A DNA stretch of 43,721 nucleotides from a bacterium (lineage in GTDB: Bacteria; Patescibacteriota; Minisyncoccia; 2-02-FULL-40-12; IGHO2-12-FULL-4). The translations under genes and the position numbers were made by a program. Shown piece by piece: positions 11,664-43,721 of this stretch. The stretch's first letter is position 1. Each line of letters opens with the position of its first letter. The stretch covers positions 1 to 43,721 of the forward strand of contig JAUYPS010000048.1 in the NCBI GenBank assembly GCA_030695705.1. Direction: 5' to 3'. Under the pieces are notes generated by a model. It searched no databases, was not told where the DNA came from, and saw nothing but the letters and a program-made list of their open reading frames with translations.

Positions 11664-11739
11664 GCAAATCAGCCATACACCCACTTGAAGATTCCGAGCG
11701 ATAAGTCGAGGTCGAAAGTGGGTGGTATGGCCGATTTGC
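11664..11739. repeat. Family A palindromic element, copy A1 (intergenic, 76 bp, diverged)
   Basis: gcaaatcagccatacacccacttga...tcgaaagtgggtggtatggccgatttgc. It shares the termini and architecture of the copies at 26763, 42572 and 43667, and starts 9 nt after the upstream stop codon. Confidence 0.85.
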
Positions 11740-14858: not shown

Positions 14859-14920
14859 TGTCACTGTGACACTATGACACTATGACACTATGACACTATG
14901 ACGTGTCACTATGTCACTAT
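14859..14920. repeat. 8-bp tandem array (GACACTAT x4 perfect, plus degenerate/inverted units)
   Basis: tgtcactgt GACACTAT GACACTAT GACACTAT GACACTAT gacgtgtcactat gtcactat. The four perfect units span 14868-14899 and are flanked by the palindromic cores tgtcac-t-gtgaca and gacgtgtc. Confidence 0.85.
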
Positions 14921-26530: not shown

Positions 26531-27061
26531 ATGAACGGGAAAGAATTTATCACTCAAAATACCAAAGAAACCCAGAAATTGGGGGGGATTTTGGCTAAAG
26601 AAATCGTTAGCAAACCTTCTTCGGAAAAAGCAGCGGTTATTGGCTTGGAGGGGGAGTTAGGAGCAGGTAAGACCACCTTCATAAAAGGTTTCGCCAAGGC
26701 CTTGGGAATAAAAGAAAAGATCTTAAGCCCCACTTTTGTTTTGATTAAGTCATATAAAATCGGCAAATCAGCCATACATCCACTCGAAAATTCTCGAGCG
26801 ACAAGTCGAGGGTCGAGAGTGGGTGGTATGGCTGATTTGCCGACTAACGAATATAAATTTTTAGTGCACATCGAGGCCTATCGCTTAAAAGACCATCGGG
26901 GTTTGCTTCCTTTAGGAATTAAAGAAATTTTAGCCGATCCGCAAAACATTATTCTGATTGAATGGTCAGACCGGGTTGCAAAAATCCTTCCCAGGAAATA
27001 CATCAAAATACACGTAGATCATATTGAAGAAAATATTAGGAAAATAAGAATACGCACCTAA
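26531..27061 (+). CDS. tsaE: tRNA t6A37 biosynthesis ATPase TsaE, carrying an in-frame palindromic-element insertion
   Basis: GLEGELGAGKTTFIKGFAKAL (Walker A), SPTFVLIKSY and HIEAYRL. At 176 aa it is about 26 aa longer than usual because of element A2. Confidence 0.85.
   Translation: MNGKEFITQNTKETQKLGGILAKEIVSKPSSEKAAVIGLEGELGAGKTTFIKGFAKALGIKEKILSPTFVLIKSYKIGKSAIHPLENSRATSRGSRVGGMADLPTNEYKFLVHIEAYRLKDHRGLLPLGIKEILADPQNIILIEWSDRVAKILPRKYIKIHVDHIEENIRKIRIRT
26763..26840. repeat. Family A palindromic element, copy A2 (78 bp, in frame inside tsaE)
   Basis: gcaaatcagccatacatccactcgaaaattctcgagcgacaagtcgagggtcgagagtgggtggtatggctgatttgc. It is translated as (G)KSAIHPLENSRATSRGSRVGGMADL(P). Confidence 0.9.
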
Positions 27062-27238: not shown

Positions 27239-29899
27239 ATGAAAAAGTTAATTTTAATCGACGCCAATGCTCTTGTTCACCGGGCTTTCCACGCTTTGCC
27301 TCCGCTTACTTCTCCGGAAGGAATGGTGGTCAATGCCGTTTACGGATTTACCTCGGTTCTAATCAAAGCGATTAAAGACATGAAGCCGGACTATATGGCG
27401 GCGGCCTTTGATTTGGCCGGGCCGACTTTCCGTCATGAGGAGTTTGAGGAGTACAAAGCGCATCGCGAAAAAGCGCCCGATGAACTTTATGCCCAGATTC
27501 CGGTAATTAAAGATATGCTTCGCTCTTTCGGGGTGGAAATATTTGAGCAGGCCGGATTTGAGGCCGACGATTTGATCGGTTCGGTGGCGGAAGAAGCCAA
27601 GAAAGTCAAAGATTTACAGACGGTCATCTTGACGGGGGACTTGGACACTCTTCAGCTGGTGGATGACGAAAAAGTGCTGGTTTTAACTTTGCGCAAAGGA
27701 GTGAGTGACACGGTTTTATACGACGAGAAAGCGGTTAAAGAGCGATACGGCTTAGAACCGTATCAGGTTACTGATTTTAAGGGACTGAAAGGCGATCCAT
27801 CCGACAACATTCCCGGCGTGTCCGGAATCGGAGACAAAACCGCCACGGCTTTGCTTCAAGAATACGAAACTATCGAAAATCTTTACAAAGTTATCCACAC
27901 GCCAGGTTGGACCTTGCAGAAGGGGAAGGGGGTGTTGACGGTTAAATTAGTTGAAAAACTTAAGGAACATCAGGAACAGGCCATTTTCAGTAAACGGCTG
28001 GCGACTATAATTCGGGACGTAAAAATTAATTTTTCCTTGGCGGGAATTGACTGGCAGAACAAGTTCAATCGGGAAGAAATTGTCAGGTTACTGAAGGGTC
28101 TTGGGTTCCACAGTATTTTGCCGCGCTTGAACAATCTTGGCGTCGGTCCGGAACCGGAAGCAGTTGTGCCTGTCCAGATTGGTTTAGAACTGGAAAACAA
28201 AGCAGATCCTAAGTTACCTGTTAAAGCATGCAAAAATGAAAAAGATATTAACGAATTTCTCGATAAATTAAAGCCGGACCAGCCAGTTTATATTTACTAC
28301 AGTGAAAATAACTTCTATTTTTTACAAAGTTATCCACATGCCAGGTTGGACCTGGTAAAGGTGCCGGTTAATTTGATAAAAAATCTCCGGTCATTTTTCG
28401 AAGATGAACAAATACCGAAAAGGGGATATAACTTAAAACCTCTGATTAAAGTACTTCTCGACCACGGCATTCATTTAAAAAATTTGGATTTTGATATTGC
28501 CGTGGCTGCTTATTTGTCGCGGTCTGAAACGCGTGACTATGAGATTGATAAAATTTATTTTACTGAATTTGGCCAGTCGTTATCCGACGGCCCCTTGGCG
28601 ACCATAACCGCTTTGCCCAAATTATATGATGTCTTTTGGGATAAACTTAAGACAAAAAACTTAAATAGGGTTTTTCAGGAAGTTGATCTGCCTTTAGTGC
28701 CGGTGTTGGCTGAAATGGAAAGAAACGGAATTAAAATCGATTTGGATGGCCTAAAGACCCTTTCTCAAAAAGTCGAAAAGGAAGTTATTAAATTAGAGAA
28801 AGAGATTTATAAAATGGCCGGTGAGGAATTTAATATCAGTTCCCCCCAGCAGCTGGGCAAAATATTATTTGATAAACTGCTTTTAAAAACCAAAGTGCGC
28901 AAGACGCTGGGAGGAGCGCGGTCTACTGCTGTCTCTGAACTGGAAAAACTAAGAGACGAACATCCGATTATTGAATTAATTATTCAATATCGCGAATTGC
29001 AGAAACTCAAGACCACTTATATTGAGCCGTTTCCTGTTTTGGTTAATGCCAAGGACCAGCGTCTCCACACCACTTACAATCAGATGGGTACGGTTACCGG
29101 CCGGCTTTCCAGCCAGGATCCGAACCTACAGAATATTCCTATTCGGACTGAGTTGGGCCAGGAATTTCGCCGGACTTTTGTAGCGGAAGACGGTTACGAA
29201 TTAATTTCCTTAGATTATTCCCAACTTGAACTTCGCATTGCCGCTTTTTTATCCGGCGACCAAAAAATGCTTGATGCTTTCAGAAGAGGAGAGGATATTC
29301 ATACCCGCACGGCGGTGGAAATTTTTGAAGTTTCTCCGGAAAAAGTCACCCCCAATATGCGGCGCGAAGCCAAGGCGCTGAACTTTGGCATTTTATACGG
29401 CATGGGGGTTTTGGGATTTGCCCGTTCGGCGGGAGTGGATCGTTTGCGGGCTAGGGAATTTATTACCAAATATTTCAAGGAATTTTCAGGAATGGCCCGC
29501 TATATTGAGCATCTGAAAGAACAAGTCAGGAAAAATGGCTTTGTAGAAACATATTTCGGACGACGAAGGGAGTTGCCGGAAATTAATTCCGGTCTGCCCC
29601 AACTGGTAGCCCAGGCGGAAAGGATGGCTTCCAATGCCCCTATTCAGGGCACGGAGGCGGATATAATGAAACTGGCCATGATTAAGGTTTATGATTACGT
29701 TCATGCCGGTCATTTAGAAAGTGAAGCTCGCATTTTGCTTCAAGTCCACGATGAGCTATTATGTGAGGTGAAAGAGGAGAAAGCTCGGGAATTATCCTTA
29801 AAATTCAAGGAAATCATGGAGAAGGTCTGGGAGGTAGATGTGCCGATTATTGTTGACGTTAAAATAGGTAAAAACTGGGCGGAAATGAAAAAAATATAA
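27239..29899 (+). CDS. polA: DNA polymerase I
   Basis: 886 aa. 5'-nuclease domain (LILIDANALVHRAFHAL; GDPSDNIPGVSGIGDKTA). Polymerase motifs DYSQLELRIAAFLSGD, RREAKALNFGILYG and QVHDELL. Confidence 0.97.
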   Translation: MKKLILIDANALVHRAFHALPPLTSPEGMVVNAVYGFTSVLIKAIKDMKPDYMAAAFDLAGPTFRHEEFEEYKAHREKAPDELYAQIPVIKDMLRSFGVEIFEQAGFEADDLIGSVAEEAKKVKDLQTVILTGDLDTLQLVDDEKVLVLTLRKGVSDTVLYDEKAVKERYGLEPYQVTDFKGLKGDPSDNIPGVSGIGDKTATALLQEYETIENLYKVIHTPGWTLQKGKGVLTVKLVEKLKEHQEQAIFSKRLATIIRDVKINFSLAGIDWQNKFNREEIVRLLKGLGFHSILPRLNNLGVGPEPEAVVPVQIGLELENKADPKLPVKACKNEKDINEFLDKLKPDQPVYIYYSENNFYFLQSYPHARLDLVKVPVNLIKNLRSFFEDEQIPKRGYNLKPLIKVLLDHGIHLKNLDFDIAVAAYLSRSETRDYEIDKIYFTEFGQSLSDGPLATITALPKLYDVFWDKLKTKNLNRVFQEVDLPLVPVLAEMERNGIKIDLDGLKTLSQKVEKEVIKLEKEIYKMAGEEFNISSPQQLGKILFDKLLLKTKVRKTLGGARSTAVSELEKLRDEHPIIELIIQYRELQKLKTTYIEPFPVLVNAKDQRLHTTYNQMGTVTGRLSSQDPNLQNIPIRTELGQEFRRTFVAEDGYELISLDYSQLELRIAAFLSGDQKMLDAFRRGEDIHTRTAVEIFEVSPEKVTPNMRREAKALNFGILYGMGVLGFARSAGVDRLRAREFITKYFKEFSGMARYIEHLKEQVRKNGFVETYFGRRRELPEINSGLPQLVAQAERMASNAPIQGTEADIMKLAMIKVYDYVHAGHLESEARILLQVHDELLCEVKEEKARELSLKFKEIMEKVWEVDVPIIVDVKIGKNWAEMKKI
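27890..27928. repeat. Family B element, copy B3 (inside polA; right arm decayed)
   Basis: gttatccacacgccaggttggaccttgcagaag... shares tttacaaaGTTATCCACA-GCCAGGTTGGACCT with copy B4. It is translated as VIHTPGWTLQKGKG. Confidence 0.6.
28329..28367. repeat. Family B element, copy B4 (inside polA, different reading frame; right arm decayed)
   Basis: gttatccacatgccaggttggacctggtaaaggtgcc..., translated as SYPHARLDLVKVP. Confidence 0.6.
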
Positions 29900-30870
29900 T
29901 GAGTCATAAAGCAAAAATTTTTATAATTGTTATGGTTGCTATTGTTTTAAGCATGATCGGAATAGTTTTTGGAACAAGAAATAATATTGAAATAGGAGGG
30001 GAATTGGCCGGCATGAGTTTGCCGGAGTCCGATCTATCCGGAGAAAGGTGTCAAAATGCCAAGCGGAGACCGGTAGCGGTCATGCTATCGTCTGATCCGG
30101 AAACCCGGCCTCTGTCGGGAATAGGAGAGGCGGATCTGGTTTTTGAAATGCCGGTGACCGATGGCGGAGTAACCAGAATGATGGCTGTTTTCCAGTGTGA
30201 ATTGCCAAGTGAAATCGGTTCAATCCGTTCAGCGCGGGAAGATTTTATTCCCTGGGTGCAGGGTTTGGGGGCGGTTTATGCGCATTGGGGAGGGGAGAAA
30301 GACGCTTTGAGCAAGCTTAACGGGGGAATTGTTGACAATATCGATGCCATGAAATACGAAGGGACTTATTATTACCGTAAAAATGACGTCCGTCCGCCGC
30401 ACAACGGCTTTACCAGTTTCCAATTGCTTGCCCAGGCCAGTGCCAAGTTGGGATACAACTTAGAAAAATCAGCCACCTCTTACAAGCACGAAAAGGGAAA
30501 AAGTTTAGAAATAACGGACCCCCCAGCTCTTTATGAAGGTAACTTTTCTGTGCAGTGGAGGTATCAGCAGGACAGTAATACTTATCGGCGCTGGCGTGGC
30601 GGGAAAGAGGAAATAGATCACAATACCTCTAAACAAGTTGAGGTCAGCAATGTGGTCTTACTAAAAACAACTTGGTCACCGATTAGCAAGGATTACATTA
30701 ATGTGAAAACAATCGGCTCCGGAGAAGCGGTTATTTATAAAAATGGAGAAGCGGTTAACGGCACTTGGGAAAAAAGAACCGCCACCGACTCCCTGGTTTT
30801 TTACGATTCCACCGGCCAGAAAATTAAATTCACCATCGGCGCTATCTGGATCGAAACCTTGATTAAATGA
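29899..30870 (+). CDS. DUF3048-family secreted/membrane-anchored protein
   Basis: N-terminal TM anchor. RPVAVMLSSDPETRPLSGIGEADLVFEMPVTDGGVTRMMAVFQ and PPHNGFTS match my memory of DUF3048. The start overlaps the polA stop (TAATG). Confidence 0.78.
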   Translation: MSHKAKIFIIVMVAIVLSMIGIVFGTRNNIEIGGELAGMSLPESDLSGERCQNAKRRPVAVMLSSDPETRPLSGIGEADLVFEMPVTDGGVTRMMAVFQCELPSEIGSIRSAREDFIPWVQGLGAVYAHWGGEKDALSKLNGGIVDNIDAMKYEGTYYYRKNDVRPPHNGFTSFQLLAQASAKLGYNLEKSATSYKHEKGKSLEITDPPALYEGNFSVQWRYQQDSNTYRRWRGGKEEIDHNTSKQVEVSNVVLLKTTWSPISKDYINVKTIGSGEAVIYKNGEAVNGTWEKRTATDSLVFYDSTGQKIKFTIGAIWIETLIK

Positions 30871-31760
30871 CCCTCTCACTCTATTATGGAACGGATAGTT
30901 TTCGAGTTAAGGAAGCAGTAGAGAAAAAGGCCGCTTCTTTTTTGGCTAAATACAAAGACGGTTTGGTGGAGAGGTTGGATTTTGAGAAGGAAAATTGTCT
31001 GGAAGAAGTGGAAAATATTTTGAAAAGACGCTCTTTTTTCAATGAGCCGGAATTAATAATCGTTTATGCCCATATTTCCGCCAAGGACTTGCCAAAAAAG
31101 AATAAAAAACTTTTTGAACTTTTAACCAAGAAAGCGGAAGAAACAAAAGAATTTGAAAGCATCAAAGGATCTGCCTTGGAAAAGTGGGCTTTGGAGAAAA
31201 TAACCCAAGCCGGTTTTAGCATAAAATCACTGGCTCTAAAAAAACTGATTCTTCGAGTTGTTTCGCAAGGGCAGTTGTCCCAGGAAATTGATAAGCTGAT
31301 CGCTTACCAAAGTTATCACGGCAAAAAGGAAATAGACGACCAAGCCCTAGTTATCCACTTACCAGGTTGGACCTGGAATGTGGATAACTTTGCTTTGATT
31401 GATGCTATTGGGTCTCGCGATATTAAAAAATCAGTAGCGCTTTTAAACCAAACCTTGGCTGATGGTATGGAGCCGCATGCTGTTTTGGGCCAAATTATTT
31501 ACCAATTCAGAAATTTGTTGAAGGTAAAGAGTTACACGGCTGCCGTGTATATACACGGCAGCCGTGTAACTGTCGAGAATATTGCTAAGCTAACCGGTCT
31601 GCATCCTTTTGTCGCTCAAAAAACCAGCCGACAAGCCAGACAGTTCGAGTTAGAAGAATTAAAAAAGGCCTATCGGTATTTATCGGAACTGGATATAACA
31701 TCAAAAACCGGCCAAGTTGATTTAACGGCCGGTTTGTTTCAGCTTTTATTGCAAATTTAG
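30867..31760 (+). CDS. holA: DNA polymerase III delta subunit (HolA-like), carrying two palindromic insertions
   Basis: 297 aa. The N-terminus LYYGTDSFRVKEAVEKK and overall layout are typical of short HolA proteins. The start overlaps the upstream stop (ATGA). Confidence 0.7.
   Translation: MTLSLYYGTDSFRVKEAVEKKAASFLAKYKDGLVERLDFEKENCLEEVENILKRRSFFNEPELIIVYAHISAKDLPKKNKKLFELLTKKAEETKEFESIKGSALEKWALEKITQAGFSIKSLALKKLILRVVSQGQLSQEIDKLIAYQSYHGKKEIDDQALVIHLPGWTWNVDNFALIDAIGSRDIKKSVALLNQTLADGMEPHAVLGQIIYQFRNLLKVKSYTAAVYIHGSRVTVENIAKLTGLHPFVAQKTSRQARQFELEELKKAYRYLSELDITSKTGQVDLTAGLFQLLLQI
31350..31388. repeat. Family B palindrome, copy B2 (39 bp = 13 codons, in frame inside holA)
   Basis: gttatccacttaccagg-ttgga-cctggaatgtggataac, with 2 mismatches in the 17-bp arms. 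Translated as VIHLPGWTWNVDN. Confidence 0.85.
31540..31579. repeat. Family C palindrome, copy C2 (perfect 20+20 bp, inside holA)
   Basis: gttacacggctgccgtgtat|atacacggcagccgtgtaac. Translated as (S)YTAAVYIHGSRVT. Confidence 0.85.
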
Positions 31761-31829: not shown

Positions 31830-33893
31830 ATGGAGAAAATCAACTCAGAAAACGGAAGTTTGCTTTTTCATGTCCGGGAAGTGGCGAAAAAGCAGCGGCG
31901 GTTTGAAACGGCTGCCCAGAGCGTTTCCAGGATGATTTTGGAAAAAGGCCTGGAGAAGAGAATTCACGCCGGCCGGACAGTCTACGATTTCAATTTCTTT
32001 CGGCAAGGCAAAAAACACCTTATTGGTTGGTACGACGAAATCAACGATTTTGTTCACTTTATCAAAGATGCCGCCGAAGGTGGTTCGGCTGCTGAGATGG
32101 GATTTGTTCTGGTCGGTGAGCCCGGCAATGGCAAGACATTTTTTGTCGATTATATTTGCGAGTATTATCGGCGGTTTCTGGCCTTGCCGGAAAACCGGAG
32201 ATTTACTTTTAAATTTACCGGATTGGACAAAGCGCTTGGCTATAACGAAAAAGTTGCCGAGCTGGAGTCCTTGACTTTCGAAGATCCGATGATTATGGCG
32301 CTGAATCTGTTTGAAGAACGCAGCCAGACGGAATCTTGGCTTATCAAAGCCGGTTTCGGAGAAAAGTATCTGGAGGAGCTTTTTGACCTAAGACGGTCAT
32401 TGGGCGCTTCCTCCGAATATCTTTTATACGCCCTGAAAGAGCGTTTTGGCGGAGATATCGAAAAGTGTCTGGAGTATGTTAAAGTATTTCCTGTCCCAAT
32501 GCGGGAGAGTTTGGGAACGGTTACCGGCAAATACTCGGCCGGAGACAAGATTACCTCTTCAGGTACCGACCTGAAAGGAGAGGAATCGCTCCAGCATCTT
32601 CTTTTGCTCGGGTTGGACGATCCAAACAAGTTTGATTTGAAGCGCGGCGCTTTGGCGCGGGTGGCTGGTTCCGGTATTCATTTTGCCGATGAGCTTTTCC
32701 GCAACAAGAAAGATCTTGTCCAAATTTATCTGCAAGTCATTCAAAACCGAATTGTGGAAATATCCGCTTTTATCTGGCCGATTGATGTTCTGATTATCGG
32801 AACCAGCAATAACGACGCTTTCAATCAATTCATTTCGGATAAAGATGAGGCGCCGATTCATGATCGGTGCCGTATTTGCTACGTTTCTCACAATACCGAC
32901 CACAGGATTCAGATGAAGTTGACTTCTTACATTATTGGCGGAAAGAAACGGACTACCGTTTTAGGCAGTGAGATGCACGAGGATCCAAATTTGAATTACG
33001 CCGCTTCTGTCAGCGTGGTTTTGACTCGTCTTCCGCTATCAGAAAAACTTACCCCCGTTGAAACGATGAAATTGGCGGCAGGAGAAACGGCCGGTGAGAA
33101 GGGTAACAAAACTTTGAAAGAAGTTATTGATACCGTTAACGCTAATCCGGATGTTACGAAAAGATGGGGGCAAGGAGGCATCGGCTATCGCAATTTGGGC
33201 AAAACTATCCAGATTCTGGCCGCGATGCATGAGTCAAACGAAGGCAAATGTCTCTTCGCCAAGGACGTTTTCAAGGCATTCGAAAGAATCATCCTTGATT
33301 ATGTGCCGGAAGCATCACATCGCGACAAGTTTATGCAAGATCTGAAGATTGCCAGGAAACTTTACCGTGAACAGATCAAAACGGCCATTTTCAACGCTTA
33401 TCGCGATGACCCGCAGGCGATTCGTAAAGATGTAATGAGTTACGTTAATATGGTTATCGGCATGGACGCGGAAAATTTGGGTCCGGATAAAATGTGGAAA
33501 TACAAGGATCCGCAAACCGGCGAAATCAAGCCGATTAAAATTGATACGAATTATATTAATAGCGTTGAAAAACGCCTCGGTCTTGCTACCCAGGAACGGC
33601 ATGATTCGTTTCGAAATACGATTCGCAAAATTTATGGCCAGAAAGTAGCTACCGATCCGAATTACGATTTCATGGATAACCAGGAACTGGTCAAAGCTGT
33701 TACCGATGTCCGGTTGGAATCAGATGTGGCTGGTGCGGGTAGTTTGGTTGGCGCTTTGGCCAACCGGACCAATGAAGAAAATGTCAAAATCTATAACCGG
33801 ATGATTAAGACGATGCTTGAGAAGCTCGGCTACTGTCTGACTTGCGCCTCCGGGACCATTGAATACTATTGCGAAAAAGAAGATGAAAGCTGA
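31830..33893 (+). CDS. prkA: PrkA/YeaG-family AAA+-like serine protein kinase
   Basis: 687 aa. Walker A VGEPGNGKTFF. Collinear by eye with E. coli YeaG (e.g. ALARVAGSGIHFADELFRNKKDLVQIYLQVIQ... against ALCRANQGIMEFVEMFKAPIKVLHPLLTATQ; IHDRCRICYVSHN against FLDRVYIVKVPY). Confidence 0.88.
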   Translation: MEKINSENGSLLFHVREVAKKQRRFETAAQSVSRMILEKGLEKRIHAGRTVYDFNFFRQGKKHLIGWYDEINDFVHFIKDAAEGGSAAEMGFVLVGEPGNGKTFFVDYICEYYRRFLALPENRRFTFKFTGLDKALGYNEKVAELESLTFEDPMIMALNLFEERSQTESWLIKAGFGEKYLEELFDLRRSLGASSEYLLYALKERFGGDIEKCLEYVKVFPVPMRESLGTVTGKYSAGDKITSSGTDLKGEESLQHLLLLGLDDPNKFDLKRGALARVAGSGIHFADELFRNKKDLVQIYLQVIQNRIVEISAFIWPIDVLIIGTSNNDAFNQFISDKDEAPIHDRCRICYVSHNTDHRIQMKLTSYIIGGKKRTTVLGSEMHEDPNLNYAASVSVVLTRLPLSEKLTPVETMKLAAGETAGEKGNKTLKEVIDTVNANPDVTKRWGQGGIGYRNLGKTIQILAAMHESNEGKCLFAKDVFKAFERIILDYVPEASHRDKFMQDLKIARKLYREQIKTAIFNAYRDDPQAIRKDVMSYVNMVIGMDAENLGPDKMWKYKDPQTGEIKPIKIDTNYINSVEKRLGLATQERHDSFRNTIRKIYGQKVATDPNYDFMDNQELVKAVTDVRLESDVAGAGSLVGALANRTNEENVKIYNRMIKTMLEKLGYCLTCASGTIEYYCEKEDES

Positions 33894-33904
33894 AAAGTGA
33901 TAAA

Positions 33905-35065
33905 ATGGGAAACGAAACATTTGACGAACTTTTAAAAAGAGACGAACAAAGAGTGGCTGACGGTTTCAAAAAGAAAATCAAATTAAAGCGAGTATTAGTC
34001 GGCCACGACAAAGTTCTCACTGTTCCTTATGTGGAAGAAGAAAAACTTCTTCACGGCGATTTTGAGCCAACAGGAGAGCATGGCGAAGATGAGGCTGGCC
34101 GCGGCGAAGGAGAAATAGGCGACATTATTGCCCGCTCCAGACCGCAAGGAGGTGGCGGCGATTCCGGCGATGATGAAGATGATGATTCTTCGGACGCCGG
34201 TGAGGGTAATGGGGGAGAGCATGGTCTGGAAAGCGATATTTTCCAGCTCGGTAAAGAGTTGACCGAAAAACTCAAGCTTCCCAATTTGAAAGACAAGGGG
34301 AAAAAAGTGCCGACGGATGACTATATTTACGATTTGACTGACCGACACCGCGGTTCCGGCCAGTTTCTGGATCGAAAAGAGACGCTCAAGAGTATTATTA
34401 AAAGCAATGTTGCTCTTGGTCTCGTCAGCGGCGATAACGTCGACCCTTCCAAACTGGCCATCGGACCACATGATTATATTTTTCGTGTTTTGTCAAAGGA
34501 AAAGGTCTGGAAGTCGCCGGCCGTGGTTTTTTTTATGAGGGACTATTCCAGATCAATGTATGGTGCACCGACCAAAGCGGTGGTGGACCAGCATCTGATG
34601 ATCTATTCCTGGCTTATGGTTCAGCACGAAAAGTTGGTCATTCCACGATTCATTGTTCACAATGCGGAAGCAAAAGAGGTTCCGGCGCACAGATACTTCG
34701 GAGCTAACTCTAGCGGCGGAACTTTTATTCCCTCCGGCTATAGCAAGATTATGGAGATAATTGTGGAAGAAAATCTGGCGAGGAATTACAACCTCTATCT
34801 TTTCCAGGGAACCGACGGAGAGGACGACGATGACGGCCAAGTGGCTATTCCTTGGGTTAAAAAGTTGTTGGAATTTTTTAACCGGATAGGGGTGAGTGTT
34901 TTGAACACTTTCCGTGGTGAACAAAAAACCGTTTTTGAAAAATATATCGCAGAAGGCGGCTTTCTTGACCAAAAGGATCTCTTTCGAATGCATGTGATGT
35001 CTTCAAAAAATCCAAGCGAGACGGATAACCAAGAAGCGGTCAAAGCGTTGATTGCGCAGGATTAA
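33905..35065 (+). CDS. yeaH: YeaH/YhbH-family protein (DUF444, vWA-like)
   Basis: 386 aa. Acidic Gly/Asp-rich segment, then AVVFFMRDYSRSMYG and LYLFQGTDGEDDDD (MIDAS-like D.S.S ... DG.d). Located 11 nt after prkA. Confidence 0.82.
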   Translation: MGNETFDELLKRDEQRVADGFKKKIKLKRVLVGHDKVLTVPYVEEEKLLHGDFEPTGEHGEDEAGRGEGEIGDIIARSRPQGGGGDSGDDEDDDSSDAGEGNGGEHGLESDIFQLGKELTEKLKLPNLKDKGKKVPTDDYIYDLTDRHRGSGQFLDRKETLKSIIKSNVALGLVSGDNVDPSKLAIGPHDYIFRVLSKEKVWKSPAVVFFMRDYSRSMYGAPTKAVVDQHLMIYSWLMVQHEKLVIPRFIVHNAEAKEVPAHRYFGANSSGGTFIPSGYSKIMEIIVEENLARNYNLYLFQGTDGEDDDDGQVAIPWVKKLLEFFNRIGVSVLNTFRGEQKTVFEKYIAEGGFLDQKDLFRMHVMSSKNPSETDNQEAVKALIAQD

Positions 35066-35068
35066 ACA

Positions 35069-35097
35069 ACGGGTGATATTAGTTCATCCGTTTTTTT
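35069..35097 (+). terminator. Terminator-like hairpin between yeaH and spoVR
   Basis: acgggtga-tattagt-tcatccgt (one G-T pair) followed by a T7 run. It sits in a 119-nt gap. Confidence 0.5.
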
Positions 35098-35184
35098 ATT
35101 CGCATCTGATAGTCCGCTCCGGCTGGACGAGGTCTGACAGATGCTGTAAGGTATGGTAAAAGTACCTTTAAAAAGAGGTGAGAG

Positions 35185-36891
35185 ATGGAATTAATAGACC
35201 AGAAAACGAAGAAAGTTATGCAAGAATGTCGAGTCCGGGCCGCCGAGGCCGGCTTGAAGATCGAAGGAGAAACGTTGGAATATATCGCCACCAACCAGGA
35301 TATGCTGGAGCTTCGGCCCAAAGGCATGATTCCTACGCTTTATGACTTTTGGGTTGACGATCTGGAAGTGCTTGGAAATAAATGGGTTTATAAAGCATAT
35401 CCGCATAATGCTTACGAAACGGTCGTAAATACTCATCCGCCGATATCGTTTTATAATGACAACAATCCGGACTGGCTGAACATAATGATTTTCTATCATG
35501 TGTTGGGCCATATTGATTTTTTTCAGAACAGCGTTTTTTTCCGCAATACATGGGGGATGGACTTTTGCGGCGAAGCGCTGGCTGACAAACGACTGATTGA
35601 GAGAATTCGGGAGGAAAAAGGGGCGGAGAAAAGATGGGTTGATTATGTGGTTGAATTTGCCCGTGGCGTTGACAACCTGGTCGGTTATTACCGTGAATTA
35701 GGAGAGGACGATCGGGTGCAGGCCGAAGGGCTTCTTGGAAGTTTTTCCGAAAAAGTAAACTTTTATTTCGGAGATTTTTTACGATACCGCTACGAGGAGA
35801 AAACAGTAACATTGAAACTGTATCACGAAGAGCTGGAGCGTCTGAACCGATGTCTAAAAGAGTTTGGGGATAAGCAGGGAGAAATGGCGTTTTTTGAGGA
35901 CTCATTTTTAAAAAGCCGTTTTCCTGAATTTAATAGTGCTTTTAAAAAGGTCCGTGACAAAAACAAAAATAAAAAGTCTAAATCTACCGATCTTTTCCAG
36001 TATTTGACCGAGCATTCCCGTTTTATCAATGAAGAAGAAAATAAATGGATGAAGGATGTCTTAGATGTGGTCAGGCGGACTTCTCTGCATTTCCAGCCGC
36101 ATTTCAGAACTCATAACTGCAACGAAGGATGGGCCAGTTTATGGCATGAGCGGCTCTACATAGCCGATTCGCGCATAAGTTCTCACGAAGTGGGTTTTGC
36201 CAGGGTTAATTCCGGCGTGGTGGTTGATCCGAAGATCGGCTTCAATCCGTATATCGGATTCAAACGGCTTTATGAGTTCCTGGAAGAGTTGGCCGATAAA
36301 GGCAAGCTTTCCCGTGATTACCAACTGATAAAAGACATCAAAGAAAGAGAGCGGTTTGATCGGCGGCCGGAAGAAGGGTTTGGCAGGAAAGTGCTTTTTG
36401 AGGCGAGGAATAATTTTGACGATGCCATGCTGGTCAATTTCCTTTCTGACGAGGATTTTCAGGACTTCATGGACCGCTATAATCTTTTCAACGTCGGTCG
36501 GCGATACAATCCAGATGAAAATGTCATTGAGCATTACATCAAGTCCCGGAGCGGAAAGGAATACCGCAAGATGATGAATGACCGTTTGTATCATCCGCCG
36601 TGCATCCTGGTAAACGAAGAAAAAGCGGATAATAAAAACGAGCTGTTTCTGGAGCATGTCTTTGAAGGGCGGACCTTGGTGACCAGATATGTTCCGGCCG
36701 CTTTGGAAGGTTTATCTTATCTGTGGGGCGATGTCGTCTGTTTGGAAACAACCGAGTTCGAGTGGGATCCCGAAGATAAGAATCGGAAACTTTTCGATCC
36801 GGAGCATGAAGTGGAATACCGGAAAGTCCATGTTCTTTACACCACTGATGGAACAACAACGGAAAGAGAAGAATTGGAGGAGGAGGAATGA
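35185..36891 (+). CDS. spoVR: SpoVR/YcgB-family protein
   Basis: 568 aa. FYHVLGHIDFFQNS and HNCNEGWASLWHERL are SpoVR-family signatures. Confidence 0.87.
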   Translation: MELIDQKTKKVMQECRVRAAEAGLKIEGETLEYIATNQDMLELRPKGMIPTLYDFWVDDLEVLGNKWVYKAYPHNAYETVVNTHPPISFYNDNNPDWLNIMIFYHVLGHIDFFQNSVFFRNTWGMDFCGEALADKRLIERIREEKGAEKRWVDYVVEFARGVDNLVGYYRELGEDDRVQAEGLLGSFSEKVNFYFGDFLRYRYEEKTVTLKLYHEELERLNRCLKEFGDKQGEMAFFEDSFLKSRFPEFNSAFKKVRDKNKNKKSKSTDLFQYLTEHSRFINEEENKWMKDVLDVVRRTSLHFQPHFRTHNCNEGWASLWHERLYIADSRISSHEVGFARVNSGVVVDPKIGFNPYIGFKRLYEFLEELADKGKLSRDYQLIKDIKERERFDRRPEEGFGRKVLFEARNNFDDAMLVNFLSDEDFQDFMDRYNLFNVGRRYNPDENVIEHYIKSRSGKEYRKMMNDRLYHPPCILVNEEKADNKNELFLEHVFEGRTLVTRYVPAALEGLSYLWGDVVCLETTEFEWDPEDKNRKLFDPEHEVEYRKVHVLYTTDGTTTEREELEEEE

Positions 36892-39056
36892 ACGATAATA
36901 CGGAACGGGCCATTGAAACTTTAAAAGTTGATCTTGAACACAGTGAAAAAAGACCGGTGATGGATTTTCAGGAATATCTTGATATTGCCAAGGACAATCC
37001 CGAAAAGATTTTCCGCAACATTTTCCGGCTTTTCCATGATATGGTTAAAAGCTATGTCGAGAAGGGGGAGGATGAGTATCCTGATGATCCCGAGAGTATC
37101 GGTTTTATGAAATATGACTGTTCCCGGCTTTTTGTCCACGGATCGAACAATCCGTTTTTTGCCGACCGTCTTTTTGCCAATCGGTTTGTCCGGCAGGCGG
37201 AGGCGTTAAGGCAGGGCTCCCAGCAGAACAGGATTTATGTCTATGAGGGGCCGCCGGGTTGCGGCAAGAGTACCTTTCTTAATAATCTCCTCCGCTCTTT
37301 TGAGGAATATTCCAACACGGAAGAAGGGCGGAGCTATGAAATTTTCTGGGATATCAAAATAGGCAATGATCAAGTTCAAGTGCCTTGTCCAAGTCATGAT
37401 TATCCGATTCTGCTTATTCCCAAAAATTACCGCGTTAACTTTCTGGATAATCTCTTGTCGGAGAAGATGACGGAATTCAAACACCGTGTTTCCAATGACA
37501 AGGAGTACGAATGGCTGTTTGAAGGAGATGTCTGCACGATTTGCCGTTCGCTTTTTCGGGGTTTGCTTGAGAAGCTTAACTCTTTGGAGCAAGTTCTGGG
37601 AATGGTCAAAATCCGTCCCTACAAGTTTGATCGGCGACTGGGCGAGGGGATCAGTGTTTTCAATCCCGGCGACCAGCCCTCCAAATTGACTTTTTTAAGC
37701 GATAAGCAGATTCAAGAAAGACTTGACCGGATTTTCGGAGCTAACTTGGTAAAATATGTTTTTTCCCTCCAGGCCAGAACCAATAATGGGATTTATGTCT
37801 TGATGGACATCAAATCCCACAACAAGGGACGGCTTTTGGAACTTCATAATGTCATTTCGGAGGGTATTCACAAAGTCAACGGAATAGTTGAAGAAAGAAT
37901 CAGCTCGCTTTTTGTCGCCCTGATGAATCCTGAAGACAAAAAAGCGCTGGAAGAAGAGAAAATCGAGTCGTTTCTGGAAAGAATCCAGTATAACGCGATT
38001 CCTTACGTTCTTGATGTGCCGACCGAAGTCAAAATCTGCCAGAGCACCTTTGGTGAACAGATTGGCGTGAATTTTCTTCCGGGGGTCATTGAAAACTTTG
38101 CGAGAGTAATTATTTCTTCGCGGATGAACGTCGAGTGCGTTTCGCTTAAAGAATGGATTCCGGATATCTCCAGGTACAAAAAATACTGTGACGAGGCCGG
38201 TCTTCTTCTGCGGACGGAAATTTATGGAGGGGTTATTCCGTCCTGGCTGTCCGAGGAAGACAGAAAAAAGTTGACGGCCAAAGTCAGGCGCCGCCTTATT
38301 GCCGAAGGCGAACAAGAGGGAAAAAAGGGATTTTCGGGGCGGGAATCCATCCGTCTTTTTGGGGAGTTTTTTAGCCGGTATGGAGAAAAACCGAATCTGA
38401 TCAACATGAACAATGTTGCTGATTTTTTCCGACAGCAAATCGGCAAAGAACAACGGAACCAAAATATTCCCAAGAACTTCATCATCTCGCTTCTGAACTG
38501 GTACAATTATAGGGTTTTGAGTGAAGTGAAAGAATCCCTCTACTTCTATAATGAAGAGCAGATCGTGGAAATCGTTCTACATTATCTTTGCGCCGTTAAT
38601 TATGATATTGGGGCGAATGTTCGCTGTCCCTGGACCGGGCGGACCATAGAAGTGACGGTTGATTTCCTAAAAATTGCGGGCGCTTATTTTGTCGGCAAAG
38701 ATATAAACGATCAGGAGGCCTTACTGATCGCCGGAGAAGTTCAAAAAAAATATGTTGAAGTGGTTGCGGCGGAAAGGAGCCAAATAACGGAGACCGAACT
38801 CTATAAAGAGCTTTTTGTCGCTTGCGTGCGCAATCTGAAAGAAAAAACATTTGAACCATTTCTCAAGAGTGACAACTTTAAGGAAGCGGTCAAAGCATTC
38901 GGTACTGGCGAATTTGAGACGTTCGATACGCGTCTTCGGGAGCATGTCGCCTATATGGTTAATAATCTGGTTAATCAGTTCGGCTATACCGAACAAGGCG
39001 CGAAGGAAATATGTCTTTATGTTGTTGACCAAAAACTAATCGAAAAGTTTTCTTAA
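36888..39056 (+). CDS. Second, divergent PrkA-like P-loop ATPase
   Basis: 722 aa. Walker A YEGPPGCGKSTFLNNL. The later block GIYVLMDIKSHNKGRLLELHNVISEG...FVALMNPED...FLERIQYNAIPYVLD parallels the PrkA block in the first gene. Its ATG overlaps the spoVR stop (ATGA). Confidence 0.7.
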   Translation: MNDNTERAIETLKVDLEHSEKRPVMDFQEYLDIAKDNPEKIFRNIFRLFHDMVKSYVEKGEDEYPDDPESIGFMKYDCSRLFVHGSNNPFFADRLFANRFVRQAEALRQGSQQNRIYVYEGPPGCGKSTFLNNLLRSFEEYSNTEEGRSYEIFWDIKIGNDQVQVPCPSHDYPILLIPKNYRVNFLDNLLSEKMTEFKHRVSNDKEYEWLFEGDVCTICRSLFRGLLEKLNSLEQVLGMVKIRPYKFDRRLGEGISVFNPGDQPSKLTFLSDKQIQERLDRIFGANLVKYVFSLQARTNNGIYVLMDIKSHNKGRLLELHNVISEGIHKVNGIVEERISSLFVALMNPEDKKALEEEKIESFLERIQYNAIPYVLDVPTEVKICQSTFGEQIGVNFLPGVIENFARVIISSRMNVECVSLKEWIPDISRYKKYCDEAGLLLRTEIYGGVIPSWLSEEDRKKLTAKVRRRLIAEGEQEGKKGFSGRESIRLFGEFFSRYGEKPNLINMNNVADFFRQQIGKEQRNQNIPKNFIISLLNWYNYRVLSEVKESLYFYNEEQIVEIVLHYLCAVNYDIGANVRCPWTGRTIEVTVDFLKIAGAYFVGKDINDQEALLIAGEVQKKYVEVVAAERSQITETELYKELFVACVRNLKEKTFEPFLKSDNFKEAVKAFGTGEFETFDTRLREHVAYMVNNLVNQFGYTEQGAKEICLYVVDQKLIEKFS

Positions 39057-40784: not shown

Positions 40785-41421
40785 AAGAACTCCGGAAATT
40801 AAACAAGTTACGATCGATTTTTATAACCGGTTTTGCTATCAATACTGGGAAAGGCATCCCAATGCGCCGGTAAAGTCGATGGAAAAATTCGCCAAAATGC
40901 TGCGGGGTCCGAATATTCTTGATTTGGGATGCGGGGGCGGACACTCGGCGGTATTTAAAATGATGGGTATAAAGCTTGGTCTTGGTATGCATTTGAATCC
41001 TATCGCAGCAGATATTAGTCCCATTATGTGTCTGGCGGCAAAACAAAAAGGCGGTTTGCCAGCTGTGGTAATGGACCAGGAAAATCTTTGTTTTAAACCG
41101 AACAGCTTTGACGGAGCATGGTTATCGAAATCGCTCCTTCATTCTCCTTCGGAAGTCGTGCCGGGGATTCTGGCCGATCTACGGCTGATCCTAAAACCTC
41201 GGGGCGTTCTTTTCCTCGGCATGCAGGCGAGCATCGGACAGTATATAGAAACTGAACTAAAAACAACCGAGATCGGCACTAGGTACTATTGTTATTGGCC
41301 GACTTATCGCTTACACGGCCTGCTGGAAACTTTAGGTTTCGCAGTGGAGGAGCTGTCTATTCACGGCAAGGACTCCTTAAATAAGAGAAATTACTTCGAA
41401 ATTTTCGCTGTTAAGGAGTAG
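40777..41421 (+). CDS. Class I SAM-dependent methyltransferase
   Basis: ATG at 40777 after RBS aaggag, overlapping the GT2 3' end by 8 nt. Motif I ILDLGCGGGHSA and post-I/II regions are present. Confidence 0.8.
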   Translation: MVERTPEIKQVTIDFYNRFCYQYWERHPNAPVKSMEKFAKMLRGPNILDLGCGGGHSAVFKMMGIKLGLGMHLNPIAADISPIMCLAAKQKGGLPAVVMDQENLCFKPNSFDGAWLSKSLLHSPSEVVPGILADLRLILKPRGVLFLGMQASIGQYIETELKTTEIGTRYYCYWPTYRLHGLLETLGFAVEELSIHGKDSLNKRNYFEIFAVKE

Positions 41422-41422
41422 A

Positions 41423-41461
41423 GTTATCCACATCCCAGGTCCAACCTGGGATGTGGATAAC
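41423..41461. repeat. Family B palindrome, copy B1 (perfect 17-bp arms), acting as a hairpin between convergent genes
   Basis: gttatccacatcccagg-tccaa-cctgggatgtggataac. The loop is inverted relative to the holA/polA copies. It starts 2 nt after the methyltransferase stop and touches the recG stop codon. Confidence 0.8.
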
Positions 41462-43656
41462 TATTCGAAGTGGCGGATTTTTTGGAATTGGGCCAGTTGA
41501 TTTTTGAGTAAAGGATAAGATGATAATCCCGGATCTTCTTTAAGTAAAAGCTTGGCTTCTAACCGGGCTTTTTTTATTAATTCTAAATCAGTCAGAGAGG
41601 CCATAGCCAGATCCGGCATTCCGGATTGTTTGTTTCCGGTAAATTCTCCCGGTCCGCGTAATTTCAAGTCCTCTTCAGCTAACTGGAATCCGTCTTCACA
41701 ATTTTCCAAACATTTGAGCCGTTTATTTTCGAAGCGATTATCTCCGCCGTTGACCAAAAGGCAGGAGGACTGATGTTCAGCGCGTCCGACTCGCCCGCGG
41801 AATTGATGAAGCTGGGCCAGGCCAAATCTTTCCGCATTCTCAATTAGCATGACCGAAGCGTTGGGGATATCGACACCCACTTCCACTACGGAAGTGGAGA
41901 CCAGAATGTCGTAAAAGCCGTTTTTGAATCCGGCCATTATTTTTTCTTTTTCTTTTGGTTTCATTTTTCCGTGAAGCATGGCAATTTTAAACTGCGGAAA
42001 AATCTTTTTAGAAAGCTTTTCGTATTCTTCGGTGACGGCTTTTACTTCCGACCAAAGCACATTCATTTTGTCTTTGCCGTTTTTGGCTTTTATTGTTTCT
42101 TGGGGGTTAGCCAGTTCAATGCGGGGACAGATTACAAAGATCTGCCGGCCAGCTTTTATCTCTTTTTCCAGAAATTGATAGGCCTTTTGTTCCTGATTTT
42201 TTGCAATTACTTTAGTCGTAATTTTTTTGCGATTTTTTGGTTTTTCTTTAATCAAAGAAATATCCAGATCTCCATAAATAGTTAGGGCCAGAGTGCGGGG
42301 GATAGGAGTGGCCGTCATACTCAAGAGATGCGGAACGTGGGCGGAGTTTTTAAGCAGAGCGGCCCGCTGTTCAACTCCAAATCGATGCTGTTCATCTAAA
42401 ATTGCCAATCCTAGTTCTTTGAATCTGACATCTTTTTGGATAACTGCATGCGTGCCGATTAAAATCCCGATTTCTCCTTTGGCAATTTTTTCTTGCATTA
42501 TTTTCTTGCTTACTTTTTTCTCTAGACCGTTACGGCTAAATCGGGCCTCACTTCCGGTAAGTAGCCCAATTACTAAACCAGGCAAGTCAGCCGTATGCCC
42601 ACTCGAAAATTCCCGAGCGACAAGTCGAGGGTCGAGAGTGGGTGGTATGGCTGATTTGCCTAATAAAGAAGTTATTGTGCCGAAGTGTTGGCGGGCCAGA
42701 ATCTCGGTCGGAGCCATAAAGACCGCCTGTTTTTTTTGGCGGGCTGTTTGGTAAGCAGCTGTTAAGGCCACCACGGTTTTACCAGAGCCAACGTCTCCAT
42801 TCAAAAGACGGTTCATGGGGTATTTTTTTTCCAGATCTTTTAGAATCTCAAAGGTCGCTATTTTTTGGTCGCCGGTCAGTTCAAAGGGCAAAGAATCAAC
42901 AAAACTTTTTACTTTTTGCGGTTCAAATTTTATGGGGACAGATTTTAGCTGCAAAGCTTGCCGGCGACTGGCAATTGATTTTAATTGGAATAAAAATAAT
43001 TCCTCAAAAGCCATTCTTTGTCTTGACTGTTTTGCCTCTTCTGGAGAATCCGGGAAATGGATACTTTTGACGGCGGAATTAAGTGAAGGGAAATCATATT
43101 TTTCTAGAACGTGTTTCGGCAAGGGATCAGATGAAATGTCCACAGCAGATAAGAGGGGCTTTATTAAAAAACGGAGATATTTAGAAGTTACTCCTTCTGT
43201 TTCCGGGTAGACCGGAACAAGTCGGCCGGTATGAGTCGGAAAGTTAGAGGTGAGTTTTTCGTAAGCGGGATTAGAAAGGTATAATCCGTGCTTATCTAAA
43301 GATGTTTTTCCAGAAATACTGACCCGGGTCTCTAAAGGAAGGGAATTTTCCAGATAGGGCTGATTGAACCAGATCGCCCGCACCACTCCGCTGTGATCCT
43401 GAACGAAGGCCTCCGTTACCGATCTTCTGTGCCACAAAGAAGTTGTTTTTATTTTTATAATCTCTCCTTGCAGAGAAACTATTTCCCCGGGTTCACGGAT
43501 TTCTTCCGCCGGTACTTGCCGTCTATAATCTTCGTAGCGATGAGGAAAATGCCATAACAAACCCCTGACTGTTTCAATGCCGAGTTTTTTTAGGCGCGGC
43601 AAATTTTTTGATCCTACCCCGGAAAGTTTTTCGATGGGAGTATCGAGAGGAAGCAT
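41461..43656 (-). CDS. recG: ATP-dependent DNA helicase RecG, carrying an in-frame palindromic-element insertion
   Basis: 731 aa. N-terminus LSGVGSKNLPRLKKLGIETVRGLLWHFPHRYEDY, wedge domain, and helicase motifs GDVGSGKT, DEQHRFGV, MTATPIPRT and QLHQFRGRVGR. Confidence 0.95.
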   Translation of the reverse strand: MLPLDTPIEKLSGVGSKNLPRLKKLGIETVRGLLWHFPHRYEDYRRQVPAEEIREPGEIVSLQGEIIKIKTTSLWHRRSVTEAFVQDHSGVVRAIWFNQPYLENSLPLETRVSISGKTSLDKHGLYLSNPAYEKLTSNFPTHTGRLVPVYPETEGVTSKYLRFLIKPLLSAVDISSDPLPKHVLEKYDFPSLNSAVKSIHFPDSPEEAKQSRQRMAFEELFLFQLKSIASRRQALQLKSVPIKFEPQKVKSFVDSLPFELTGDQKIATFEILKDLEKKYPMNRLLNGDVGSGKTVVALTAAYQTARQKKQAVFMAPTEILARQHFGTITSLLGKSAIPPTLDPRLVAREFSSGHTADLPGLVIGLLTGSEARFSRNGLEKKVSKKIMQEKIAKGEIGILIGTHAVIQKDVRFKELGLAILDEQHRFGVEQRAALLKNSAHVPHLLSMTATPIPRTLALTIYGDLDISLIKEKPKNRKKITTKVIAKNQEQKAYQFLEKEIKAGRQIFVICPRIELANPQETIKAKNGKDKMNVLWSEVKAVTEEYEKLSKKIFPQFKIAMLHGKMKPKEKEKIMAGFKNGFYDILVSTSVVEVGVDIPNASVMLIENAERFGLAQLHQFRGRVGRAEHQSSCLLVNGGDNRFENKRLKCLENCEDGFQLAEEDLKLRGPGEFTGNKQSGMPDLAMASLTDLELIKKARLEAKLLLKEDPGLSSYPLLKNQLAQFQKIRHFE
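42572..42649. repeat. Family A palindromic element, copy A3 (78 bp, in frame inside recG, antisense orientation relative to the gene)
   Basis: gcaagtcagccgtatgcccactcgaaaattcccgagcgacaagtcgagggtcgagagtgggtggtatggctgatttgc. On the recG strand it is translated as (G)KSAIPPTLDPRLVAREFSSGHTADL(P). Confidence 0.9.
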
Positions 43657-43666
43657 GGTCTTATTA

Positions 43667-43721
43667 GCAAATCAGCCATACACCCACTCGAAAATTCCCG
43701 AGCGACAAGTCGAGGGTCGAG
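43667..43721. repeat. Family A palindromic element, copy A4 (left part; truncated by window end)
   Basis: gcaaatcagccatacacccactcgaaaattcccgagcgacaagtcgagggtcgag. It begins 10 nt beyond the recG start codon, i.e. in the recG 5' leader. Confidence 0.85.

Follow-up and report, generated by a model that had tools for sequence, protein, structure and literature searches.

A hairpin-forming palindromic repeat within housekeeping genes of groundwater Parcubacteria and its likeness to the Rickettsia palindromic elements

The window considered here is a 43.7-kb stretch of DNA (43,721 nt) from a member of the Patescibacteriota, contig JAUYPS010000048.1 of a metagenome-assembled genome in NCBI. It carries four copies of a short imperfect palindrome, of which one lies in frame within tsaE, one within recG and two in intergenic DNA. 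The tsaE copy had been singled out in a preliminary description as a 78-nt imperfect palindrome at 26763-26840, and its sequence, its fold and the split match of the host protein to the TsaE profile all confirm this.

The element and its two host genes in the window

The features of the element, its copies and its host genes are as follows.

26531-27061, plus strand: tsaE host gene, intact, 176 aa; PF02367, TIGR00150
26763-26840, plus strand: palindromic element, tsaE copy, 78 nt; element frame +2 reads (G)KSAIHPLENSRATSRGSRVGGMADL(P)
26763-26785, plus strand: left stem arm, element positions 1-23; its partner is 26817-26840
26786-26816, plus strand: asymmetric core, 31 nt, GAAAATTCTCGAGCGACAAGTCGAGGGTCGA, with repeated TCGAG motifs
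26817-26840, plus strand: right stem arm, element positions 55-78; extrahelical base at 26825
11664-11739, plus strand: intergenic copy, 76 nt; two single-nucleotide deletions, core diverged
41461-43656, minus strand: recG host gene, 731 aa; NF008168, 815 bits
42582-42659, plus strand: recG copy; the gene is on the minus strand, and frame -2 reads KSAIPPTLDPRLVAREFSSGHTADL
43667-43721, plus strand: copy cut by the window end, 10 nt upstream of the recG start codon

The letters of the tsaE copy, GCAAATCAGCCATACATCCACTCGA AAATTCTCGAGCGACAAGTCGAGGG TCGAGAGTGGGTGGTATGGCTGATTTGC, form a 23-bp stem with one bulged base around the asymmetric 31-nt core, from which the element takes its polarity. Across copies the bulged base can be G, C, T or A; it is missing in two copies only, both of which lie outside internal genic sites. 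Folded as RNA, the tsaE copy reaches -47.6 kcal/mol (z = -9.6), which none of 200 shuffles equals; fold z-scores lie between -8 and -9.6. Its two strands are equally stable when folded as single-stranded DNA (-25.7 and -25.2 kcal/mol). A search of the whole window against Rfam gave no match at the gathering score, the only hits being miRNA-precursor hairpin noise (15-28 bits vs cutoffs of 52-117). A tRNA scan found nothing, and terminator and promoter scans around two copies returned nothing terminator-like and no U-tail.

Four of the six reading frames of the element are free of stop codons, as had been stated earlier and as a frame check bears out; the TGA of GGCTGATTT falls in frames +1 and -1. 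The peptide inserted in TsaE is GKSAIHPLENSRATSRGSRVGGMADLP, just as first given, and the net gain of tsaE over orthologues with an empty site is 26 codons, i.e. exactly 78 nt.

The terminal 15-mer of the element occurs six times in the window, where 0.06 occurrences would be expected. The intergenic copies at 11664-11739 and from 43667 to the window end stand as earlier reported, and so does the presence of a copy in recG, whose coordinates are corrected here from 42572-42649 to 42582-42659 (10 nt higher). The first of the intergenic copies begins 9 nt past the stop codon of an open reading frame (ORF) at 10240-11655, and the left arm of the recG copy holds three A>G changes that convert pairs to G.T. 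All four copies have the same orientation on the plus strand.

The reading of tsaE as an intact gene with its Walker A, SPTF and YRL motifs also holds: the 176-aa ORF carries GAGKT, SPTF and AYRL. Its product, MDP3731356.1, has Parcubacteria as its closest named relatives and scores well above threshold against the TsaE profiles (PF02367, E = 1.4e-29, 103 bits; TIGR00150, 98 bits vs a cutoff of 60), with the profile match broken into two parts by the insert. That the segment was inserted rather than ancestral, as had been proposed, agrees with the orthologues. The best 120 TsaE homologues are mostly 146-150 aa long, and in a 36-sequence alignment the closest of these have an empty site (YKLKTTN-YKLL). 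At the same place the TsaE of Thermotoga maritima has 3 residues vs 33 in the window protein. Only close relatives carry the peptide, distant TsaEs having unrelated inserts or none, and the segment is missing from the solved structures of both TsaE and RecG.

An AlphaFold2 model of the window TsaE has a mean predicted local distance difference test score (pLDDT) of 88.7 and a core above 90. The insert (residues roughly 77-108) is modelled as coil of low confidence (pLDDT 53-73) between strands 72-76 and 110-115, and in a Foldseek search the core superposes on solved TsaE (1HTW, E = 1e-12, TM-score 0.72-0.80; 6N9A chain E, E = 4e-11). The predicted structure supports the view that the tsaE copy lengthens a tight beta-hairpin turn and forms a surface loop. 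In RecG, the insert comes after helicase motif Ia, in a segment aligned between residues 438 and 461 of 1GM5, and the RecG orthologues L126/L131 and L169 have a copy at the same site.

The loop of TsaE holds other insertions as well. In a distant parcubacterial TsaE (P0048; L180:3801-4478 and L181:1080-1757), an unrelated GC-rich palindrome that folds at -40.7 kcal/mol and encodes HPEKASGVKPRGGHATLRGPRGFTG lies in the same beta-hairpin loop, and unrelated inserts are also present there in the distant proteins P0015, P0022, P0029, P0043, P0084 and P0092. Judged from these alignments, insertions appear to have been tolerated in this loop time and again.

The tsaE site in relatives and the wider family

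Relatives of the window genome reveal several states of the tsaE site. Two independent assemblies from other samples (L122 and L123) have diverged copies at the same tsaE codon, that of L123 with arm changes that lack compensation. Elsewhere only in-frame remnants are left, namely the 5' 29 nt of the element in L178 and its last 11 nt in L179. In the syntenic contig L121, whose PolA is 87% identical, the internal site is empty; a separate copy lies at the 3' end of tsaE and, read in frame +1, provides the final 24 codons together with the stop. This rules out mis-assembly of the repeat into the gene, a concern raised in the preliminary description. Copies have been gained, have decayed and have been lost at the site, the decay of old ones proceeding through in-frame deletion.

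To place these copies in a wider family, metagenome contigs were scanned with the core pattern, which yielded 57 further copies on 54 contigs, all from groundwater-type metagenomes. These contigs, L124-L177, stem from aquifer samples of the Hainich and Rifle type. Because they were picked by an exact match to the core, intact copies are over-represented among them, and the conservation of the core is difficult to gauge. The terminal 15-mer is too short for such a purpose: in 596 Gb of contigs it gave 120 single chance hits in unrelated taxa. A scan of viral contigs found no copies. When the six-frame peptides of the element were compared with a set of 5.8 billion proteins, 14 proteins matched at E <= 1 (SpoU, IscS, TsaE, PMT, RNase HII), a result that is confirmatory and no census. 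The 31-aa insert peptide had no match among 1.84 billion representative proteins, the query being too short for significance.

With the element masked, the host genes on these contigs proved to be genuine genes for TsaD, a SpoU methyltransferase, a class-V aminotransferase (IscS-like), UvrC, LepA, bacterial PGI, a MurF-type ligase, glycosyltransferases of the GT2 and PMT types, and others, in addition to TsaE and RecG in the window. After orthologous sites had been merged, the sample contained the following.

Internal genic sites: 15 distinct
5' or N-terminal gene edge sites: about 9 distinct
Gene 3'-end sites: 1 distinct
Intergenic sites: about 8 distinct

Both genic and intergenic copies are thus found in relatives, as the preliminary description had proposed to count them, and genic sites make up about half or more of the distinct ones. 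The element is dispersed over unrelated genic and intergenic sites, and the occupancy of these sites varies between close relatives. Together with at least 15 in-frame sites in housekeeping genes, this bears out the earlier remark that it behaves like a Rickettsia palindromic element (RPE). In homologous PMT proteins that are 61% identical, the element lies at residues 235 and 353; these are different positions and therefore independent insertions.

A stop-containing frame is used at none of the 15 internal sites (P = 0.0023, assuming equal phases). Thirteen of them are read in frame 2, whichever way the element points, which gives KSAIHPLENSRAKSRGSRVGRMADL or, when flipped, KSAIRPTLDPRLFAREFSSGCMADL. 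The remaining two begin in frame 0, and in both a 1-nt insertion brings the reading into frame 2 just ahead of the hydrophobic WVVWLIC tail. Variants 76-77 nt long are confined to places other than internal genic sites, and genic copies lie between the conserved blocks of their host proteins, 22 of them in sense and 13 in antisense orientation relative to transcription. As far as sequences can tell, this frame pattern is the signature of selection on a translated product, and it argues against mRNA excision and ribosomal bypass.

Some copies have further peculiarities. The internal copy of the IscS-like gene is split by a nested insertion of ~20 nt (...ENSRGDSMGGLKHRPPETSPVSESRGSRV...; L152:5417-5542 and L155:1976-2017), and the same gene has a second copy of the element at its N-terminus. 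One contig has two tsaD-like genes (L173 and L175) on the same strand; both contain the element at the same residue, but oppositely oriented and with arms that differ (GCCATAC vs GAAATAC). Copies in frame -0 (ANQPYDPLSTLDSSLGSFRVGVWLIC) are located at ORF starts in L147, L162, L160 and L172, directly before hydrophobic segments that resemble signal peptides or transmembrane segments, and the right arm holds ATG GCT GAT in frame 2. The element may consequently be able to donate start codons or N-terminal extensions.

Stem maintenance, inversion and competing explanations

Across 53 distinct copies, the stem is 97% paired and has compensatory double changes at 16 of its 23 pairs. None of 500 shuffles reaches this covariation, and slid controls are paired to only 33-40%. 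Watson-Crick pairs fill 1147 cells of the stem, as opposed to 35 G.T, 18 A.C and 19 other cells. No bias of wobble pairs towards the transcribed or sense strand was detected, antisense copies being biased the wrong way. With non-Watson-Crick cells so rare and without a bias to the transcribed strand, the stem looks like a DNA palindrome rather than a selected mRNA structure.

The element also occurs in both orientations at one and the same residue. Nine internal sites are covered by at least two distinct contigs, and both orientations were observed at five of these (TsaD, LepA, SpoU, IscS and MurF). One such flipped pair belongs to LepA proteins that are 98.6% identical. The two orientations encode distinct central peptides, PLENSRAKSRGSRVG vs PTLDPRLFAREFSSG, at the same site in orthologues; the peptide itself is therefore not the conserved target.

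The element is probably a non-autonomous, hairpin-forming and protein-coding palindromic repeat, which represents a new family analogous to the RPEs and has multiplied in a clade of groundwater Parcubacteria. New copies would land at many positions, and in a gene-dense genome essential genes would keep only those with an open frame and a hydrophilic, loop-compatible peptide. A surviving genic copy would be transcribed and translated with its host protein and form a disordered surface loop of ~26 residues without a function of its own. The element would spread as DNA, with selection on the translated peptide filtering its insertions.

Maintenance would likewise act at the level of DNA, where changes in both arms, nearly all of them to Watson-Crick pairs, would keep the stem complementary and the element would flip in place as a whole. 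DNA that forms hairpins is subject to quasipalindrome template-switch correction in bacteria and to hairpin-associated minute inversions in chloroplast DNA. Through hairpin or cruciform DNA, template-switch 'correction' of quasipalindromes and inversion of the hairpin loop could account for stem compensation and flipping, respectively. Since the arms are inverted repeats, copies can be aligned in either orientation, and ectopic conversion between them may add to the maintenance; it would account for the flipping as well as for the excess conservation described below.

A different palindrome in the window offers a related observation. The holA-like ORF at 30867-31760 contains a perfect 21+21-nt palindrome at 31530-31571, AGTTACACGGCTGCCGTGTAT|ATACACGGCAGCCGTGTAACT, in frame (SYTAAVYIHGSRVTV). 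In L121 holA, a G>C change in one arm is matched by a C>G change in the other, and the palindrome stays perfect. This compensated change points to what may be a general process of palindrome maintenance.

Several points weigh against the proposed explanation. No transposase, including the Y1 type, is present in the window, whose only recombinase is an XerC/D-like tyrosine recombinase (4729-5643), and we infer transposition from the distribution of copies alone. Nor do the flanks of the 53 copies contain a target-site duplication; position -1 is a purine and position +1 a pyrimidine, which are complementary in 29 of the 53 and extend the palindrome. Support for retention of the insert in mRNA and for its translation within host proteins is indirect and comes from the frame statistics. 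The proposed explanation does not account for the orientation shared by the four window copies, although this has a chance probability of 1/8. Moreover, at orthologous sites the element is better conserved than the coding DNA on either side, as the following pairs of contigs illustrate.

L132 / L141: element 98.7% identical (inverted), flanking DNA 86%
L125 / L149: element 96% identical, flanking DNA 66%
L149 / L153: element 91% identical, flanking DNA 73%

Such conservation above the flanks is unexpected for an insertion that decays passively, and it requires homogenisation, re-insertion or constraint at the nucleotide level. The comparison is biased by the exact-core retrieval; still, at such divergence neutral decay would hardly ever have spared a 27-nt core on both sides of so many pairs. 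TsaE orthologues, whose retrieval went through the protein and not the core, keep 26-28 of the 31 core positions vs 67-75% identity of the flanking coding sequence. Overall, the core is near invariant, with two free loop positions (NN), and the intergenic copies are the best preserved.

It is with these observations that a functional DNA site has to be considered, i.e. a site of binding or recombination for a protein encoded by the host or by the element, which would be kept by nucleotide-level selection and whose location in genes would be a by-product. The conservation above flanking coding sequence would suit such a site, as would the near-invariant core with its free NN positions and a stem that needs pairing only. 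The flipping of the element between near-identical LepA genes fits as well, and in-situ inversion could be catalysed by an enzyme, e.g. a tyrosine recombinase. In addition, the second palindrome family of the window (see below) has intragenic DnaA-box sequences, so that intragenic palindromes can resemble protein-binding sites. Yet the conservation of the core is inflated by the retrieval method, some copies decay or vanish from a host gene that is kept, occupancy differs in close relatives in a manner unexpected for a needed site, and no partner protein was found. On balance we regard a DNA site of this kind as unlikely. We give similarly little credence to the more specific idea of an actively kept, invertible DNA hairpin whose core is read by a dedicated recombinase or nuclease, in other words a mobile or homing element of a kind new for Patescibacteria, which would stay intact at set places within essential genes and, by inverting in place, would change host proteins from one surface loop to another.

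A role of the hairpin at the RNA level, be it as an RNase III site, a stabiliser or an attenuator, or else excision from the mRNA or ribosomal bypass, is suggested by the near-perfect 23-bp duplex with its low folding energy, by the covarying stem and by the recG copy, whose three changes are G.U-compatible on the plus strand. These options are nevertheless improbable, given that the element lies in both orientations relative to transcription without wobble enrichment on the transcribed strand, that it has neither a U-tail nor an Rfam match, and that in-frame remnants unable to fold persist in intact genes. Excision or bypass would, furthermore, tolerate the stop frames that internal sites never use. 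It is also very improbable that the peptide is a selected protein module, such as an interaction or localisation tag, recruited to many proteins. The use of one frame at nearly all internal sites, with its conserved hydrophilic KSAIHPLENSRAKSRGSRVGRMADL, and the merging of N-terminal frame -0 copies with hydrophobic signal-like segments would be in line with such a module, but the element is found flipped at the same residue of orthologues with a different central peptide, is best preserved where it is intergenic, is predicted to be disordered as an insert, and is missing or mostly deleted in close relatives. Finally, all data stem from metagenome assemblies, in which palindromes and repeats are hard to assemble, so that a repeat collapsed or mis-joined into coding regions has to be kept in mind. 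Such an artefact is barely credible across the family, considering that independent assemblies, made from different samples and in different projects, share the same sites and diverge in both element and flanks, that reading frames are always kept and that remnants exist; any k-mer longer than about 25 nt should also fix the orientation.

Other repeats of the window and known palindromic elements

The window contains further repeats, listed here with their positions.

31348-31392, 41417-41463, 27886-27929 and 28325-28368: copies of a second palindrome family, also found in polA and holA of L121
4577-4704 and 27089-27215: 128-nt intergenic repeat, 82-87% identity, with an internal hairpin ATCAAGCCGG..AAAATTGG / CCAATTTTTGTCGGCTTGAT
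14859-14902: short array of about 5 units of TGACACTA in tandem, period 8 nt

The second palindrome family has the form AGTTATCCAC..CCAGGTTGGACCTGG..GTGGATAACT, and perfect DnaA-box sequences (TTATCCACA) are found in its arms. A full copy is in frame in the holA-like gene and encodes ALVIHLPGWTWNVDNF, another is intergenic and adjoins the 3' end of recG, and two half copies lie within polA. In L121, both polA sites gain an identical 51-nt hairpin, which is read in two different frames, and holA has one more copy than its counterpart in the window. One copy of the 128-nt repeat, which has no Rfam match, is located just downstream of the XerC/D-like gene (minus strand) and the other between tsaE and polA. 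The region 31830-39056 holds a PrkA / DUF444 / SpoVR / PrkA cluster that is also present in L121; PrkA/SpoVR-type clusters are associated with stress or sporulation in other bacteria.

RPEs, described as ancient and deteriorating, are the closest known parallel to the tsaE element. As summarised in PMC10969869 and PMC1166351, they comprise RPE-1 to RPE-8 (Ogata et al. 2000, 2002). Like the element described here, they are short palindromes that are scattered through a reduced genome, coding and non-coding DNA alike, and lie in frame within housekeeping genes that are unrelated to one another. They have several open frames, insert into non-structured segments in a manner compatible with the fold, lack a known transposase and form several families per genome. 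The two are set apart by the host phylum and by size (78 nt vs about 100-150 nt, given as about 150 nt in PMC10969869), with no sign of common ancestry; both differences speak against assigning the element to the RPE families proper. The element further has a conserved asymmetric core, a covarying stem, in-place flipping and conservation above its flanks, none of which is mentioned for RPEs in these summaries.

Protein-coding palindromic repeats are also known from Wolbachia (Ogata, Suhre and Claverie 2005) and Methanocaldococcus jannaschii (Suyama, Lathe and Bork 2005), as outlined in PMC2996958 (refs 49-54). To the extent of that outline, they represent the same phenomenon, stand-alone palindromes in frame, with unrelated sequences and hosts.

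Other classes of small repeats share individual traits with the element. Intragenic MITEs (miniature transposable elements with inverted repeats) such as ERIC, BOX, Correia/NEMIS and QMITE1 (reviewed in PMC10969869) are likewise small and non-autonomous, have terminal inverted repeats and sometimes form in-frame fusions with host ORFs. However, MITEs have sequence-conserved terminal repeats matched to the transposase of an insertion sequence and are flanked by target-site duplications, whereas the element has whole covarying arms, no duplication and no known parent insertion sequence. A MITE with a 2-nt target duplication was rejected, as the terminal dinucleotides covary as inverted complements (AC...GT) and are not direct repeats. 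Repetitive extragenic palindromes (REPs) and their doublets (REPINs), which are mobilised by REP-associated tyrosine transposases (RAYTs; PMC3733652), resemble the element in being hairpin palindromes, in the size of the doublets and in presumably forming hairpins in single-stranded DNA. In contrast to the element, REPs are extragenic, have a GTAG or CGTC tag at one end and co-occur with a RAYT. A REP/REPIN assignment was accordingly dismissed, the copies being mostly genic, their ends reading GCAAATC...GATTTGC without a tag and the window being free of a Y1 transposase. An integron attC site was likewise discarded, there being no GTTRRRY core sites and no location at cassette ends, and an orientation specific to the replication strand was ruled out by the two oppositely oriented copies on the L173-L175 contig. 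Lastly, quasipalindrome correction and chloroplast minute inversions involve the same matching of arm to arm and the same inversion of the loop; being mutational processes, they would explain maintenance and flipping, not spread.

In the literature searched, whose coverage is incomplete, there is no report of such elements in the candidate phyla radiation (CPR), Patescibacteria or Parcubacteria. The class is already known, this lineage is where it had gone unnoticed, and the family appears to be new.

First seen as a peculiarity of Rickettsia and later in Wolbachia and one archaeon, the class now has a wider range. An unrelated family in essential genes of Parcubacteria, along with signs of several more, suggests that elements of this kind arise repeatedly in host-dependent microbes whose genomes are very small and gene-dense. 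Additions of 26 residues and new N- or C-termini matter for the annotation of metagenome-assembled genomes as well as for comparative and structural work on CPR proteins. Moreover, the filled, empty, flipped and decayed orthologous sites in public groundwater metagenomes constitute a natural system for studying how palindromes are kept up by arm-to-arm correction, inversion and conversion, and the same sites allow the study of how random peptides are filtered into proteins.

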